This document shows positions 8,251 to 21,586 of a stretch of 64,000 bases of DNA, piece after piece (position 1 is the first letter of the stretch; each line of letters starts with the position of its first letter). The stretch lies in contig OZ253462.1 in the NCBI GenBank assembly GCA_965261395.1, positions 782,889-846,888 on the forward strand. The letters run 5' to 3'. A program made the translations under genes and the position numbers. Source of the stretch: Candidatus Latescibacterota bacterium (lineage in GTDB: Bacteria > Latescibacterota > UBA2968 > UBA8231). Under the pieces are notes generated by a model. That model saw only the letters and a program-made list of their open reading frames with translations. It was not told where the DNA came from and did no database searches.

Positions 8251-9693
8251 TCAATAGAGGTCGTCTTTTGTCGTAATGGAGCACCAGCGCGAGTTGAACA
8301 GTGCGCGGAGCAAAATATCCCGTGCGTCGGGCGTGTCCACTTGTTTTAACCCATAAGCGGCGTAAAATCGGTTGTAGCGATTCTCGTCCTCGAGCATCTC
8401 GCGCAATGCCTCAAGCGCAATACAACCCGCTTCGCCGGACTTGGCCAAGGTTAGCGCGGCGTTGCGGCGCACGCGGTAGTCCTCATCGCCGAGTGCTGCT
8501 GTCAAGTCAGCAATCAGCTCATCAGAAAAAACGCCGATGGCGCTCAAAGCCTCAATCGCATTGCGGCGCACCCACCAGTGGCGATCACTCATCGCCTTTC
8601 TCAGGGCGGGTTCTGCCTCCATTGCGCTCGCGCCCAAGCGTCCCAACACATGGGCGGCGACCGCCCGCACCCACCAGTGCTCATCGGACAACATCTCCGC
8701 CAAAGCCCCTGCGGCCGGTCCGCCTATCGACGCCAATGCCAGCGCCGCACAACCGCTCGTGGGATTGGTTCCGTGGGCATTATCCGGTGTCTTGGCCTCG
8801 GTCTCTTCGATCGTGGCCAGTGCTTCCTCCCGCATGGCGGCGACGAGTTCAGGCACGGCCGGCGCGCCAAACTCGGCCAGCCCATACGCCGCATCCAACC
8901 GCTCGCCCTCCGATCCGCGCTTCAAGACCGAGAGCAAGTCTTTCGTATTGCCATTTGGAGGCCGCTGTTTTTTTGCGGGTTTCCCGCACAACCAGTGCCA
9001 GACATCTCGTGATAGGGCCGGATGCCGATCCTCCATGCCGGGCGACCACGCACGACTTTGATGATCCCAAGTCGGTTTCTCTGGCTCCCGTGTACGCGCA
9101 AACTGAAATTTCAGCATATACCGATCTTTGCTACTGACATTCTCTGTTGCGCGATGCCAAGAATCAAAGTGAATGAGCGCCACCGTCCCCGCAGGACCGC
9201 AAAATGCCCGCGCTTCTTCCTGCGTTTTTTCGGGATCCACATCGCTAATGGTTTTGTACATCTGCATCCCGGGCAACACCCCCGACGGCCCCATATCCTC
9301 TGTCGTGTCTTGCGGAAAGTAAAAAGCGAGCACCCAATAAAATCTCGGATGCCGCAAATTGTGATCGTACACATAACAATCCTTGTGCCATTGCTGTCCT
9401 TGTCGCCCGGGCGGATTCAAGTGGCAATGTCGATGGGGGTTCAAAATGTAATCTGGCCCCAATAAACTGGTCAGGGCGCCCTGCACATTGGGGTGCTCAA
9501 ACACGCGCCCGATCTGCGGAACCCGAGGCAAAATGTTATTTCCGGGATTGCCTTCTTCCGCAAAAACCGCCTCAATCTGATCGCGAATACCGGCGTGAAA
9601 TGAGGGTGGATAATCCGCCTGCACAGTCAGACATCCATCCACGATAAATCGCTGCACCTCTTCGTCGCTCAACAACTGAATTGAATCCGCCAT
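8251..9693 (-). CDS. PhyH-family dioxygenase fused to C-terminal HEAT (PBS-lyase-type) repeats
   Basis: N-terminal half: QWHKDC (HxD), FYFPQDTTEDMGPSGVLPG, FDSWHRAT. C-terminal half: repeated HWWVRAVAAHVLGRLG, HWWVRRNAIEALSAIG and DYRVRRNAALTLAKSG units. 480 aa. Confidence 0.85.
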   Translation of the reverse strand: MADSIQLLSDEEVQRFIVDGCLTVQADYPPSFHAGIRDQIEAVFAEEGNPGNNILPRVPQIGRVFEHPNVQGALTSLLGPDYILNPHRHCHLNPPGRQGQQWHKDCYVYDHNLRHPRFYWVLAFYFPQDTTEDMGPSGVLPGMQMYKTISDVDPEKTQEEARAFCGPAGTVALIHFDSWHRATENVSSKDRYMLKFQFARTREPEKPTWDHQSRAWSPGMEDRHPALSRDVWHWLCGKPAKKQRPPNGNTKDLLSVLKRGSEGERLDAAYGLAEFGAPAVPELVAAMREEALATIEETEAKTPDNAHGTNPTSGCAALALASIGGPAAGALAEMLSDEHWWVRAVAAHVLGRLGASAMEAEPALRKAMSDRHWWVRRNAIEALSAIGVFSDELIADLTAALGDEDYRVRRNAALTLAKSGEAGCIALEALREMLEDENRYNRFYAAYGLKQVDTPDARDILLRALFNSRWCSITTKDDLY

Positions 9694-13001: not shown

Positions 13002-13168
13002 CGCTTCTTGGCCGGGCTAGCCCAATGGGGCAAAAGTTCGACCGGTTGGTTTTGCGGGTTCAAGCTGCATATAGTCTTCAATCTCATCGGGGGATTAATT
13101 GCCTATTGCCACCAACCCTAAAAACCGAGGACCCACGCCAAGTAGAGGCCCCTTAACCCGAACTCATG
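13002..13168 (+). mobile_element. internally deleted right-end remnant of an IS982-family element
   Basis: Translates as [27 protein letters not shown] joined directly to [12 protein letters not shown]. The intact copy has [27 protein letters not shown]...[12 protein letters not shown]. It ends in CCGAACTCATG, versus the intact IRR CCGAACTCACGT. Confidence 0.65.
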
Positions 13169-13243
13169 TTTTTTTATAGTGAAATGGGACCCCAATTTGA
13201 GGTTTGAGGTCCCATTTCACTAACTCGCTGTGCAGTAGATGGT

Positions 13244-16200
13244 TTACTTGAGCAACAGCATCTTCTTGACTTCGTGGAACTCACCGCCTGCCTCCAAGCG
13301 GTAGAAGTACATCCCCGACGCCAAGCTATGTCCGCTGCCGTTGGTCGCGTCCCACTCCACGACGTAGCGACCGGCGCTCTGATGCTCCGCAACCAGCGTC
13401 CGCACCGGCTGACCCACTACATTGTAAACGGTCAGTTCCACGTCCGCCGCCTGCGGCAACGCATACTTGATCGTCGTCGCCGGGTTGAACGGGTTCGGAT
13501 AGTTGTTGGCCAACGCGAACGCTTCCGGCCGCGTCTGCAACTGCACCGGAGCCGGCAACACCAGACGGTTGAAGCCAAACTCGCTGTCATACGTCTGGCT
13601 GTCGGTGATCTCGATGACCGTGTTCTCGATCTCCGTCGTCGCGCGGAAGACCAAGCTCAGCGGCACTTCGCCTTCGGAGACCACGTCCCCGTGGGCGATC
13701 ACCGTCAAGACACCGGCTTCGTCAGAAAGCACCTGCGGCGTAGCGAACACGCTTCCACCTAGCGGCTGATCGGTCAGCACCTCGACGAACTCCAGCTTGT
13801 CAGTCTCATACTGCACCTGCAAGCCGTAGCCCTTCACCGCGACAAAGTCCGCCAAACGCACGTCGAGGACAAAGTCCTCACCCACGATGGGCATGGCTGT
13901 CCGCGCGTTCAGATACATCCGCGCATCCGCATTCAGGCCAGCGAGCATGGGCACGCGCTTGCCAGCACCATTGAACGCGCCAAACAACGCGCCCAAGTCG
14001 CCGAAGTCCAGCATCGGGTTGACCGTGATGGAGAAGGTCAATTCGGTGGTGGCACCTTCGCTGTCGGTCGCCGTGTAGGTGACCTCGACGGCTCCATCGG
14101 TGGCCGCTTCGGGCGTGCCCGAAAGCGTCCGCGTGGCCGGGTCAAACGACAGGCCCGCAGGCAACTCGGAGACGCTGTAGGCGACGTCGCCCGAACCACC
14201 CTCAGCTGCCGGCAGTTCAGCACTCATCTCCGCACCAGCGGTGCCTGCGAGGTCGTCGATCATGGTGCCCTCGGCAAACATAAGGGCCATCATCATGTCG
14301 TCTTCTTCCATCATCTCGTAGTCGGCGATCGTGACGGTTCCCGTGCCGTCCGCCAAATCCTCGATCACACCATTCAGCGTGATCGTCTCGTTGCCCTCGT
14401 CCGCGCTGTCGGTGGTGGGATCGATGAGCAGAGCGATCGAACCCGAGACCTCGCCAGCCGGAATCGTGAGCAGCGGATTGAACAGCGCCGAGTAGTCCAC
14501 ATCGCGCGTGGCTTCCGAACCCGGATCAACCGACAGGGTGACCGTCGCGTCGGCGTCCAGCACCTTGCCGTCCAACGTCGCGGTGACCGTCACCGAGGTA
14601 ACACCGGCGTTCTCGCTTACCGTGTGCGGGTCGGCCGACAGCGAGATGGACGTGCTAGCGGTTTCGTCGTCGGCGATCGTGATATCCGCCGAGTCCGAAC
14701 CACCGGAGGCCGTGGCATGAACACCAAGGACCCTATTGCCGTCCGTATTCTCATTGTTGATGGGCGTGAGGGTCAGCGACGTGGTCGCTTCAGTCGCGCC
14801 AGCCGCAATGGCGACATTGCCATGTAGCTGCGCGGTAAAATCTACGTCGCGGACGGCTTGTATGCCTTCGCTGGGAGCACCAAGCGTGAACCGGATCGTC
14901 TCGGCCTCCGGAGCGGGTCCCGACAAGGTAGCCTTGACCGAGATGGACGCGGTCTCACCGCTTTCGCGGATCGACGTACGGCTCACACTCACGCTTTCGA
15001 CCGAAACCGTAGGCGGCGCAGCAGCAACGATGTCGATGGTGAACTTCGTGGCCGCGCCACCTTCGCTGTCCAGTACCGTGTAAACGACTTCGGTCTCTCC
15101 GACCCCCGTCGGCGTACCCGAAATCGTTAGCTCGTCGGCGTCAAACTCCAAACCCGCCGGCAAGTTGTTCGAAACGCTATAGGTGCGGTCGCCTTCACCA
15201 CCTTCAGCTTCCGGCAACTCTATGACCTCAATCGCCGTGCCAACCATGCCGTCATAGACCGTAGAAGCCAAGTCAACGTCGAATTTAAGCGCGCCCGGAT
15301 CTTCCGCTTCCTCAGCCGCGTCCGCATCTTTCAGCACGATAGCGACGGCACGGACATAAACGGGATCAGCATCGATATTGGTCGTGAACGGATCATTTTT
15401 CACCGAACCGATCCAGACCTTCTTATCTCCGCCAGCCTTTGCGGTGATGGTAACCGGAATCGAGCCACTGGTCTCACCGGCCAGAATCGTCAGCGAACGA
15501 AGGACGGCGGTGTATTCGGTATCGCGCGTCGCTGGCACATCGTAAGCGGCGTGACCTTCAGGGGGAGTAGCTCCTGCGACGACAACCAAGGTCACTTTCG
15601 TGTCCTCTTCAAAGACGTCGCCGTTTAGGGTTCCGGTTATCGTAACCTCCTGATCACCGGTCTCCGCCTTTATCTCTTTAAGATCGGCATCCAGGTCTAT
15701 AGTGGTAGTAGCCGTCTCGTCGTCCGCGATCTTGATACCCGCGAACTTAGAAATCGTTCCTACCTTGGCCTCTACCCGGATAATCTTCGCAAGATCCTTC
15801 CCGCTGTTATCGAAGACGGTCAGATTGAGCGTCGTCGTCTCCTTTGTTGAGCCAGCCGGAATGACGAGATCGTCCACGGTCGCCGTGTAATCGGTTCCAC
15901 GCGTCGCTTTCTGCGCATCGGCGGTGAAGGCATCAGGCAGGGAGGTGAGTTCGTCCCGAATAAAGAATCGCACCCGTGCGTCATCCGGTAGAGCGTTCTC
16001 CAACTCAATCTTCAGCTCGACCGACACCTCCCGCGACTCTGCCTCCTGCCCAACAAGGGACTCGCGGATTACGCTGGGCGTAGCCGTCAGGCCCTTAGTA
16101 GCAGCAATGGCGGTGCCCTTGATCTCGAAGTCAATGCCTTCAATCACTAGGAAGTGATGGAGCTTTTTTTCCGTCACTTCCTTTAGGAAACCATCTACCT

Positions 16201-16975
16201 TACTATCGCCGTCTAGGTCAAAACCCTCCGCCACGGAGATGGGTGAGGTTACTGAAGCTTCAGAATACGCCCAGTAACTGTCGCCATCCGGGTCCTCGAA
16301 GTCAGCATTAGCAGGCGCATCCGCACCATCGAGCGACTCTTCGAATGCCTGCTGATCGGCAAAATCATCACTGGTACCGTCGGGATCGTGGTCGGTTGGT
16401 TCTAATACTGTGATTAGTATTGTTTCATCTGTGACGCCGCTTCCGCGCAAAGGAAAATTTAATGCTTTTACTGTAAGCCCGATTTCTACGCCTGGTGAAC
16501 CAGGCGCTGCAGGTGGACCGGTAGTAGGATCACCTGTAGAGGCTGGCCATACATCCCTTGTATCGCCGTCTTGGTTTATGTCGGTACCGGAGACGGATAA
16601 CGTCACCCGACTACTTATCCCGATCCCGATATTACCAGTCCCAGCGTTCTTGGGAGTGATGTTAATCGTCGTACTCCCGTTCGGCTTTTTCCTCGGAATG
16701 GTCAGCGTGCTCAACTCTATATCGTAGTCCGCATCGCGTCCCGCCGCTGGTTTTGGATTTCCATCTTCATCCGTGCCAGGCGCGACTTGTCTCAACAGCA
16801 AAGACAGGGTCTGATCGTTTACCGGCGCTCCATCCAAACGTCCCGTCACCGTGACAGAGGTCTCCTCCGCCTCCTTGCTTATCTCGGCCGGATCAAGCCC
16901 GAGCTTGATCTTATAGCTCGGCTTGTCGGTGTCGAGCATCGTAATATCAATCTTGAATTCAACTTGTAAGTGCAA
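13244..16975 (-). pseudogene. 3' portion of an IS30-disrupted giant surface protein (Calx-beta-like repeats, putative Ig/He_PIG domains, cohesin-like domain, T9SS C-terminal sorting domain)
   Basis: 1243-aa ORF with no signal peptide. Repeated modules end in motifs such as ATRDVDYSALFNPLLTIPAGEVSGSI. YSVSNNLPAGLEFDADELTISGTPTG is Ig-like. C-terminal NYPNPFNPATTIKYALP...GMYFYRLEAGG...KKMLLLK is a Por secretion tail. The TTG pseudo-start lies inside the IS30 left inverted repeat. Confidence 0.8.
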
Positions 16976-18054
16976 TCGCTTGGGTAGCTGGCATAGAAAA
17001 GGCCAACTGGTATATTTTCCCTGGCCATTTCAAACGCAGCTCCCGACGGAGGCGCTTATGGGAACGTATCACCAGTTGACCGAGCATCAAAGATACCAAA
17101 TTTACGCCCTGAAGAAAGCCGGGCATGATCAGCAGTCCATCGCGGCGACGGTGGCGGTATCGCCCTCGACGATTTGTCGGGAGTTGCGGCGCAATCAAGG
17201 GCAACGCGGCTATCGTCCCGGCCAAGCCCATCACAAAGCGTTGGCGCGTCGTCGCCACAAGGCGAAGGCGACCAAGATGACGGCGGCGGTCATCGAGCGC
17301 ATCGAAGCGGGCCTGGGTCAGCAGTGGAGTCCAGAGCAGATTGCGGGTCGGCTGGCGACGACCGACGGGTTTCGATTGAGTCCGCAGCGTATCTACCAGC
17401 ACATCCAGGCGGATCGCCAGGCGGGCGGGATGTTGTATCGCCATCTGCGCCACAGTCAGAAGAAACGCAAGAAACGTTATGGAAAAGCCGATGCCCGAGG
17501 GCAGATTAAAGGCCGCATCAGCATGGACCAGCGACCGGCCATCGTGGAGGAAAAAAGTCGCATCGGCGATTGGGAAATCGACTTGGTGATGGGACGTGCA
17601 CGCACCGGGGCGCTCGTCTCGGTGGTGGAACGTCGCTCGCGCTATACCGTGCTGGGCAAAGTCCCCTCCAAACAGGCCGAGCACGTAGCGGCGGCCACCA
17701 TTGCGTTGCTCGCTGCCCATAAGGGGCATACCCAGACGATTACGGCCGATAACGGCAAGGAGTTTGCCCACCATGCCACGATCAGCCAAGCGTTGGACGC
17801 GGCTGTGTATTTTGCCCATCCCTACCATGCCTGGGAGCGCGGACTCAACGAGAACACCAACGGGCTGATTCGCCAGTATGTGCCCAAAGGGACGGCCTTG
17901 GATACGCTGTCCCAGGCGCAGGTACACCACATCATGGAGCGGCTCAATCATCGACCGCGAAAGGGCTTGGCATTTCAAACGCCGCATGAAATCTTATGCA
18001 AGGAAACAGAAGTTCAACCCAAACATGGCGAAATTGCGCTTACGAGTTGAATCC
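16955..18054 (+). mobile_element. IS30-family insertion sequence (about 1.1 kb)
   Basis: Terminal inverted repeats GAATTCAACTTGTAAGTGCAAT (16955-) and the reverse complement of 18054- (GGATTCAACTCGTAAGCGCAAT) match at 19 of 22 positions. A single transposase ORF has its stop inside the right repeat. Confidence 0.85.
17058..18050 (+). CDS. IS30-family transposase
   Basis: Start trimmed to ATG 17058 (GGAGG at 17048-17052). MGTYHQLTEHQRYQIYALKKAGHDQQSIA HTH region, and a DDE region with GDWEIDLV...TADNGKEF...NENTNGLIRQY. Confidence 0.9.
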   Translation: MGTYHQLTEHQRYQIYALKKAGHDQQSIAATVAVSPSTICRELRRNQGQRGYRPGQAHHKALARRRHKAKATKMTAAVIERIEAGLGQQWSPEQIAGRLATTDGFRLSPQRIYQHIQADRQAGGMLYRHLRHSQKKRKKRYGKADARGQIKGRISMDQRPAIVEEKSRIGDWEIDLVMGRARTGALVSVVERRSRYTVLGKVPSKQAEHVAAATIALLAAHKGHTQTITADNGKEFAHHATISQALDAAVYFAHPYHAWERGLNENTNGLIRQYVPKGTALDTLSQAQVHHIMERLNHRPRKGLAFQTPHEILCKETEVQPKHGEIALTS

Positions 18055-18618
18055 GCGAATCGTATTAGAAAGATCTCTATCGACCTTTGTCGGGCCAGCA
18101 TTGCCCCAGAGGGTGATTATAAGATCGTCGTTGGGGAACCGATCATTTGCCTTGTATGGGTTTTCCCCCGTCGTCACAGTCTCATCATTTTCGTGATTTG
18201 TCGGGATGGGGGTAAAAATGACATCCACCGATTCCTCTTTGGAATCCTTTGGAATCACGATACTGGATAGCACCACAGTGAAGCGACGACCTCGCGCCTC
18301 CACCGCATCACGTCCCCCAATATTGAATACCTGAAGATCACCAGACGGGTTTTGTACATAGATCAAACCCTCTGCACGCAAGAGCACCACCCGCTCCCCA
18401 TCACCGAACGCCTCATGTTCTCCACCTACATAAGTCTTGGCTGTCACCTTGATCGTGACCGCACCGCCATCCTCGCGGAACTCTGTCTTGTCCACCGACA
18501 GCCGAATTCCATCAGCCAACTGCGCCTGCGTTTCCCCGGCCCATCCCAGCACCAAACCAAACGCCAGCAACCAAGGCACATAAGCCAAGCGCCTGATTAA
18601 CGACTTCGTGTGTATCAT
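18040..18618 (-). pseudogene. 5' portion (signal peptide plus first Calx-beta-like module) of the IS30-disrupted surface protein
   Basis: MIHTKSLIRRLAYVPWLLAFGLVLGWAGETQA signal peptide, then a module resembling those of 13244..16975. The stop codon (18040-18042) lies inside the IS30 right inverted repeat. Confidence 0.75.
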
Positions 18619-20605: not shown

Positions 20606-21586
20606 ACGTGAGTTCGGGATAAGCAGAGGGACTCCTTTTTGGCTAAACTTTGGTTTGCCGACCAATGCTCATTCAGCCATCGAGGAGCCCCGCGATGAAT
20701 TTAGTCGAATTGTTCTGCCACGTCGATGATTTTTGCCAAGCGTTTGAAGGATCATGGATCCGCCACCAATTAACGACCGGGCACCGGCGTCGGCGTCGTG
20801 CTGGTCAACTATGTTTGAGCGAGATCATGACGCTATTGATTTGGTTTCATCCGTCCCACTACCGGGATTTCAAAGCCTTCTACCAACACCATGTCTGTAA
20901 ACACCTACGCGACGCATTTCCCGGGTTGGTCCGCTATGGACGCTTTGTCGAGCTGATGCCTTCGACGCTGATTCCGTTATGTAGCTACCTCCGCCAATGC
21001 CAAGGAGCCTGCACGGGGATCTCGTTTATCGACTCGACGCCGTTGGCCGTATGTAATCCCCATCGGATTCATCAGCATCGGCTTTTCGCTGGCCTGGCGC
21101 AGCGGGGCAAAAGCTCGACGGGTTGGTTTTTCGGGTTCAAACTGCACGTGGTCTTCAATGACCGGGGACAACTGCTCAATCTGGCGCTGACGCCGGGCAA
21201 TGTCGATGACCGAAAACCCGTACCCGCTTTGGTTCAAGAGCTGTTTGGCAAGTTATTTGCCGATCGAGGCTACCTATCCAAAGCGCTCTGCCAAAAATTG
21301 AGCGCACTCTTTGATCTCCAGTTGATCACCAAGCTGCGATCCAACATGAAAAATCAACTCCTGCCGATGGCCGATAAACTCCTACTACGCAAACGGGCAA
21401 TTATCGAAACCATCATCGATCAACTCAAAAATATCTCTCAGATCGAACACACAAGACATCGAAGCCCGGTCAACTTTATGGTCAATCTCCTAGGTGGATT
21501 GATTGCCTATTGTCATCAGCCTAAAAAACCGGCCCTAAGAATACAAAAGCTACCCGTATTGAAGACCCCTTAAACCGAACTCACGT
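20606..21586 (+). mobile_element. intact IS982-family insertion sequence (981 bp)
   Basis: Inverted repeats ACGTGAGTTCGGGATAAG (20606-20623) and the reverse complement of 21569-21586 (ACGTGAGTTCGGTTTAAG) match at 16 of 18 positions. They enclose a single transposase gene. Confidence 0.85.
20695..21573 (+). CDS. IS982-family DDE transposase
   Basis: Start trimmed to ATG 20695. [55 protein letters not shown] and [19 protein letters not shown] are classic IS982 transposase blocks. Confidence 0.9.

Follow-up and report, generated by a model that had tools for sequence, protein, structure and literature searches.

The window analyzed here, a stretch of 64,000 nucleotides from contig OZ253462.1 of a Candidatus Latescibacterota bacterium, contains a large surface-protein gene that is cut in two by a mobile element. 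Very probably, an insertion sequence (IS) of the IS30 family has inserted into codon 187 of this gene of 1421 codons, inactivating one member of a redundant surface-protein family. A first-pass annotation had proposed that an IS30-family element splits a gene of roughly 1,420 amino acids, which is borne out by a restored frame of 1421 amino acids and by a match of the encoded transposase to the family profile NF033563 at 310 bits. The features of the interrupted locus, in window coordinates, are the following:

13244..16948, minus strand: 3' gene fragment, codons 188-1421 and stop; open reading frame (ORF) without a signal peptide of its own
16949-16951, no strand: left copy of the target-site duplication AAT, read on the minus strand as codon ATT (Ile187)
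16952..18057, plus strand: complete IS30-family insertion sequence of 1106 bp, its ends set by other genomic copies
16952..16976, plus strand: left terminal inverted repeat (IRL), containing the TTG (16973-16975) at which the C-terminal ORF spuriously starts
17058..18050, plus strand: transposase gene, 330 amino acids, likely start ATG at 17058, with N-terminal HTH_38 and rve/DDE core
18033..18057, plus strand: right terminal inverted repeat (IRR), containing the transposase stop TGA (18048-18050) and the minus-strand TAA (18040-18042)
18058-18060, no strand: target-site duplication AAT, right copy, flanking the right end of the IS
18058..18618, minus strand: 5' gene fragment, codons 1-187, with signal peptide and first beta-sandwich module; ORF colinear with the homologues

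Ends of the element and restoration of the gene

The ends of the IS were derived from a DNA search of its own genome, the window lying within a single contig of 6.55 Mb. Five further copies were retrieved, four of them at 99.8-100% identity and one at 93%, and the copy in the window is 100% identical to three of the others. Every one of the six copies opens with CTTGAATTCAAC and closes with GAGTTGAATCCGCG. The inverted repeats measure 25 bp and are imperfect, 20 of the 25 end positions matching the reverse complement of the opposite end. With the ends placed in this way, the triplet AAT stands immediately outside the element at both 16949-16951 and 18058-18060, where the first-pass annotation had recognized no clean target-site duplication. 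Matching flanks of 3 bp also enclose two other copies (GAC/GAC and AGG/AGG), and the flanks of the remaining three copies (3/6) are unlike, as expected from recombination between IS copies. The copies with unlike flanks are those at C1:3300403, C1:3424160 and C1:6142133; the triplet CCG is the right flank of the 3.30-Mb copy and the left flank of the 3.42-Mb copy, a shared flank that hints at a past exchange between IS30 copies.

The transposase matches the IS30-family profile NF033563 over its whole length (positions 1-267 of 267) with 310.3 bits for a cut-off of 80, the second-best model, IS481, reaching 72.5 bits, well under its cut-off of 224. Pfam recognizes in it an HTH_38 domain (38.8 bits) and an rve domain (36.9 bits). 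Motif inspection, rather than a structure, points to D175 (WEIDLV), D231 (TADNGKEF) and E265 (NENTNG) as the candidate catalytic triad, with spacings of 56 and 34, 33 residues separating the second aspartate, D231, from E265. Judged by its transposase model, its helix-turn-helix and DDE core, its size, its inverted repeats and its 3-bp duplication, the element is a member of the IS30 family, and it is a new one, from an uncultured lineage. Given the intact element and its identical copies, the transposase is probably active. Target duplications of IS30-family members are 2 or 3 bp long, and the element shares this short duplication with the family, in its case of 3 bp. Like IS30 of Escherichia coli and ISApl1 of the mcr-1 transposon Tn6330, it is filled by a single transposase gene with an N-terminal helix-turn-helix and a DDE core. 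ISApl1 has 1070 bp, a transposase of 307 amino acids and imperfect inverted repeats that agree at 21 of 27 positions (PMC6349718), compared with 1106 bp, 330 amino acids and 20 of 25 positions here, both elements being of about 1.1 kb.

The two ORFs on either side of the IS were correctly described in the first-pass annotation. The N-terminal ORF (18040..18618, minus strand, 192 amino acids) begins MIHTKSLIRRLAYVPWLLAFGLVLGWAGETQAQ, carries a signal peptide and closes with ...DLSNTIRGFNS before the TAA at 18040-18042 in the right inverted repeat, the gene fragment running on for five codons (RGFNS) into the IS. The C-terminal ORF (13244..16975, minus strand, 1243 amino acids) reads MHLQVEFKIDITMLDTDKPSYK... 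from a TTG (16973-16975) in the left inverted repeat; it lacks a signal peptide and ends in a Por-type sorting domain (TIGR04183, 39.1 bits). Excision of the IS together with one duplicate, that is 1109 bp, yields a frame of 4266 bp and 1421 codons with zero internal stops. Its junction reads ...DLSNTI|DITMLDTDKPSYK, beginning with DITMLDTDK after the bar, or in the longer reading ...GNAGPTKVDRDLSNTI|DITMLDTDKPSYKIKLGL..., and the DNA of a hypothetical empty site would join ...CGTAATATCAAT to CGTATTAGAAAG...; in another reading, the uninterrupted site would run from ...CATCGTAATATCAAT directly to CGTATTAGAAAGATC... The deletion of 1100 bp (16955..18054) initially put forward gave the right frame, leaving the same remainder as 1109 on division by three, but its ends were 3 bp off on each side and the junction drawn from it, ...DLSNTIR|KIDITML..., held three residues too many compared with the true ...DLSNTI|DITMLDTDK.... 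With the ends now defined from the other genomic copies, the junction is still in frame. Neither half of the gene contains an additional stop or frameshift, in agreement with the earlier statement that the gene had not decayed further.

A protein search with restored residues 1-420 returned 69 relatives, among which 12 database proteins of 865-1868 amino acids cover 97-100% of these residues at 52-57% identity. Six homologues were retrieved and aligned (P0002, P0004, P0006, P0008, P0012 and P0016). All six start with a nearly identical signal peptide, MIHTK(S/L)LI(R/W)RLAYVPWLLAFGLVLGWAGE, and span the junction without a gap at the insertion point, where P0012 reads VITMLDTDKPS (in longer context ...KVITMLDTDKPSKLIRLAL) and P0006 reads IRITLRDTDKPSY (...NNIRITLRDTDKPSYSLLFEL). 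Congeners likewise possess unbroken ORFs of 1765-1848 amino acids matching residues 1-346. As judged from these sequences, the two ORFs are the halves of a single gene and not two neighbouring genes, because homologues and congener ORFs run continuously across the insertion point. One homologue, at 41% identity, carries the label Candidatus Latescibacteria.

Domain architecture and predicted loss of function

The part of the protein encoded by the 3' fragment comprises the following domains:

15002..15244, minus strand: first He_PIG / cadherin-like Ig domain, which phmmer matches to the adhesin SraP (4m03/4m00, E 1.7e-8)
14018..14254, minus strand: second He_PIG domain (Pfam PF05345), best stretch at residues 908-986 of the 1243-residue ORF
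13592..13885, minus strand: weakly cohesin-like module (Pfam PF00963, 17.4 bits, under the cut-off of 24.1)
13262..13501, minus strand: C-terminal sorting domain of the type IX secretion system (T9SS), type A (TIGR04183, 39.1 bits for a cut-off of 23; PF18962, 27.6 bits for a cut-off of 27)

The Sec signal peptide was called by inspection (a basic n-region, a hydrophobic core and an AQA-like site) and from a modelled helix at residues 5-27. Together with the sorting domain, it makes the product a well-supported candidate for a T9SS-sorted multi-domain surface protein; signal peptide and sorting domain stand on one polypeptide in the restored frame of 1421 amino acids only, and not in the DNA as it is. 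The genome encodes components of the corresponding secretion system, PorU (NF033707, 618 bits, cut-off 420) and SprA (TIGR04189, 474 bits plus 117 bits in the same frame, cut-off 200), and about 50 of its other ORFs bear a similar T9SS tail.

The internal modules are less sharply defined. He_PIG matches the C-terminal ORF in two stretches with 74.6 bits, and its model superposes on the cadherin-like modules of SraP with a root-mean-square deviation of 1.6-2.2 A over 92-95 columns, the second domain fitting 4m03 at 1.6 A over 92 columns. The cohesin alignment covers positions 12-119 of the 139 of the PF00963 profile; Foldseek places the type II cohesin 3ghp_A at rank 24 (E 1.7e-4, TMt 0.51), this part of the model having a predicted local distance difference test score (pLDDT) of only 50-70. 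The Calx-beta profile PF03160 reaches 21.9 bits on the C-terminal fragment, under its cut-off of 27, and has no Pfam match on the N-terminal fragment; precomputed PF03160 matches exist on several homologues. Modelled with AlphaFold2 (pLDDT 79), the N-terminal fragment consists of helices at 5-27 followed by a beta-sandwich. Foldseek returned no match for this model at E <= 0.001, the Calx domain CBD1 (3e9t) being one among many weak matches to this first module (E 4e-3, TMt 0.43). Of the labels initially given to the gene, the likeness to Calx-beta and cohesin domains therefore stands but is weak, both scores lying under threshold: "Calx-beta-like" is a fair description of the module and not a membership, and "adhesin" and "Calx-beta/cohesin" are reasonable in the same descriptive sense.

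With the large multi-domain adhesins that constitute T9SS type A cargo in the FCB group (Por_Secre_tail), the restored protein shares the Sec signal peptide, tandem Ig-like and beta-sandwich modules, and a sorting domain scoring above the curated cut-off; its He_PIG domains resemble the cadherin-like modules of the staphylococcal SraP. It differs from typical cargo of this type in belonging to a family with a near-invariant signal peptide and tail around a variable centre, and in that this copy is broken. Throughout the family (P0002-P0019), the signal peptide MIHTKSLIRRLAYVPWLLAFGLVLGWAGE and the C-terminal tail are nearly invariant and the centre is variable or mosaic. At least four intact paralogues are open in the same genome (1748, 1226, 1363 and 1331 amino acids); their identity falls from 87-91% in the tail to about 74% in the central region. 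Paralogues lie at C1:136284-141653 and C1:231053-244271, three of the four open ones in tandem, and up to 66 matches to the family were counted in one congener.

The consequence of the insertion can be proposed from this architecture. The 1106-bp IS would have transposed into codon 187 with duplication of the 3-bp target AAT. Led by its Sec signal peptide, the intact protein would first pass the inner membrane, as T9SS cargo does through Sec, and would then be exported and attached by the T9SS via its C-terminal sorting domain. The insertion would cut the remaining 1234 codons off from the signal peptide and the first module: the 5' product would end five codons into the IS, devoid of a sorting domain, and the 3' fragment would be left without the gene's own promoter and without a signal peptide. 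If made at all, the 3' product would remain cytoplasmic because T9SS cargo needs passage through Sec first. Neither product would be able to reach the cell surface, and the gene would therefore be inactivated; both this loss of function and the secretion route are what we infer from the sequence. The loss is likely tolerated, since at least four family members remain open. An outward promoter carried by the IS and reading into the 3' fragment was considered and dropped, as matches to the promoter consensus were no more numerous than in shuffled sequence. Of the two promoter-like sites detected, the one at 16935-16908 on the minus strand lies just inside the 3' fragment beyond the end of the IS and faces into it with 9 of 12 matches; it is no evidence of expression.

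Distribution of the interrupted allele and competing explanations

The 192-residue fragment, including its IS-derived tail, was found on two other contigs. In the assembly ERZ25069191 (contig L034), made independently from another sample, N-terminal fragment, IS and C-terminal fragment follow each other in the same order at 99.8% identity over 7.2 kb. This finding bears on the idea that a wrong join at a repeat during assembly put the IS into the gene, conceivable for a repeat of 1.1 kb with identical copies elsewhere that is able to mislead assemblers. The same arrangement in an independent assembly, a 3-bp target-site duplication at both flanks, and flanks that are the two halves of one gene joining in frame all speak against such an artefact, the likelihood of which we regard as negligible.

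In a third assembly, ERZ25072854, the C-terminal fragment with the IS lies on contig L017 (ctg60128) and the N-terminal fragment with the IS on contig L033 (ctg60295), both contigs having a similar coverage of about 100x. Both gene/IS junctions are identical to those of the window, each half adjoining a full IS30 copy. The far flanks of the IS on these contigs are foreign DNA matching our genome at about 1.33 Mb and about 2.64 Mb, and they bear different flank triplets. Recombination between IS copies is the likely cause of this split, and the halves would be separated for good in that strain if the assembly is right. A single reciprocal inversion was rejected as the explanation, the flanks mapping to two separate places with different triplets; at least two events, or additional gene-order differences, would therefore be needed. 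The insertion is not private to our genome, because assemblies of two further samples contain the same junctions. The interrupted allele is thus common to related strains, and in one of them IS copies probably separated its halves later by recombination.

The uninterrupted allele, the search for which in related strains or metagenome bins had been advised in the first-pass annotation, was not found, the interrupted allele being encountered in two other samples instead. An exact 24-mer over the restored junction is absent from the metagenome contig and genome contig collections, and every contig bearing the 192-residue fragment also bears the IS; no empty site was found. The protein search with the restored N-terminal 420 residues found no intact near-identical protein, its sole match above 60% identity being the same truncated C-terminal fragment (P0001), and the best continuous match among twenty relatives searched for the allele is 61% identical. 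In three congeners the cupin and acetyltransferase genes next to the locus are retained, and the roughly 10 kb that follow downstream of the latter contain no family member; comparison with a positional orthologue was therefore abandoned, no syntenic intact copy existing in these three congeners.

These results also weigh on the possibility of a reversible switch, in which precise excision of the IS in part of the population would restore the gene and produce on/off phase variation of a surface-protein family member. Excision of the IS with one duplicate does restore the frame exactly, the IS is intact with identical copies and a transposase that is probably active, and neither fragment has a secondary lesion. 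The frame match says little, however, as the frame would be regained after precise excision of any insertion that duplicates its target, and the missing empty site and 24-mer, the lack of an intact near-identical protein in the protein database, and the presence of the IS on all three other contigs bearing a fragment do not suggest an alternating locus. Moreover, the location of the halves on different contigs in one strain could not be reversed by excision. Precise excision restoring the target is rare in the IS30 family. Movement in this family proceeds, as is generally known, via junctions of inverted repeats (IR-IR) or circular intermediates (PMC6349718). A switch is accordingly considered very improbable.

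Three points weigh against a plain insertional inactivation. No uninterrupted allele was found, so that the ancestral state is reconstructed from paralogues and homologues of at most about 61% N-terminal identity. The split arrangement of ERZ25072854 rests on a metagenome assembly. The fragments are still open, and the ratio of nonsynonymous to synonymous divergence (dN/dS) of the C-terminal fragment is 0.40 in comparison with L017, which taken alone could suggest ongoing selection.

The last point was examined from the divergence between the window and L017. The IS has 1 difference in 1106 bp and the neighbouring genes are 99.3-99.9% identical, compared with 97.3% for the C-terminal fragment (99 nucleotide differences and 45 residue differences). 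Its synonymous divergence (dS) is patchy, from 0 to 0.10 per block of 200 codons, and at many of the 45 differing residues both states are also present in other family members. This pattern agrees better with tracts imported by recombination than with selection acting on the fragment, and the dN/dS of 0.40 was consequently rejected as a measure of selection, the differences resembling imported tracts. The paralogues of the genome itself were rejected as donors of these tracts, being too divergent (about 74% in the centre). The divergence looks like mosaic recombination within the family and not like gradual decay, and the age of the insertion can thus hardly be read from the open frame. The earlier view that the insertion is probably recent is thus upheld in part: the IS is identical to three other copies and no further lesion has accumulated, but the same junctions are found in two other samples.

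The same observations could be read in favour of a silent donor cassette, the promoterless and leaderless 3' fragment being kept as a sequence reservoir that swaps tracts with intact paralogues by gene conversion. In two strains the C-terminal fragment has stayed open throughout its 1234 codons; it diverges more quickly than the sequence on either side, with a patchy synonymous divergence, and differs at many residues for which each state is known in other family members. The mosaic pattern nevertheless demonstrates recombination only, not retention for that purpose, and it gives no direction of transfer; paralogues that are 87-91% identical in the tail and only about 74% in the centre are moreover a poor substrate for frequent conversion. 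This role is in our view quite improbable. More generally, the proposition that the split gene is not simply dead, either because its open leaderless fragment of 3.7 kb serves as a silent cassette for the T9SS surface-protein family or because the IS acts as an on/off switch, is given little credence. If it were true, the split gene would belong to a system for surface variation in an uncultured bacterium that may live in association with a host.

Genomic setting and significance of the insertion

Three congeners keep the genes flanking the locus at about 90% identity. At the syntenic site, these three congeneric species lack the segment 12833-22094 of the window (9.3 kb), which contains the split gene, a gene for a leucine-rich repeat (LRR) lipoprotein and an IS982-like element, and have about 870 bp in its place. 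An intact IS982-like transposase gene lies at 20650-21573, and scraps at about 13003-13170 are 81-87% identical to internal parts of that element and in the same orientation. The split gene thus looks like part of a variable island bounded by IS982-like elements. A further element of 1.58 kb with a UPF0236-type transposase occupies positions 13800-15379 of L017, inserted where the window (about 9138-9146) is uninterrupted. The genome itself has at least seven near-identical copies (>=99.7%) of this 1.58-kb element, and an IS of about 0.94 kb with a DDE_Tnp_1 transposase is present in at least ten near-identical copies (>=99.7%) within a family of at least 24 copies at 80-100% identity. From these copy numbers, the genome is very rich in IS elements that appear to be active.

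Insertional inactivation of one family member, the explanation retained here, makes the whole case an ordinary insertion pseudogene in a redundant and recombining family, which will not surprise a specialist. As in other surface and accessory genes known to have become pseudogenes through IS insertion in IS-rich, host-associated bacteria, an intact multi-copy IS has entered a non-essential, paralogous surface-protein gene. The principle is the same, to which the present case adds a later rearrangement in a sister strain, with the halves on different contigs. For annotation, the two ORFs belong together as one pseudogene broken by a defined IS30-family element. Other copies of this element can now be masked or located from its precise ends, its inverted repeats and its 3-bp duplication. 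The insertion also constitutes a dated marker common to strains from three assemblies, and the separate contigs of ERZ25072854, with each half beside an IS copy, illustrate how identical IS copies reshuffle an IS-rich genome. The expanded family of T9SS surface proteins to which the gene belongs, with its conserved leader and tail around a mosaic centre, may merit a study of its own.

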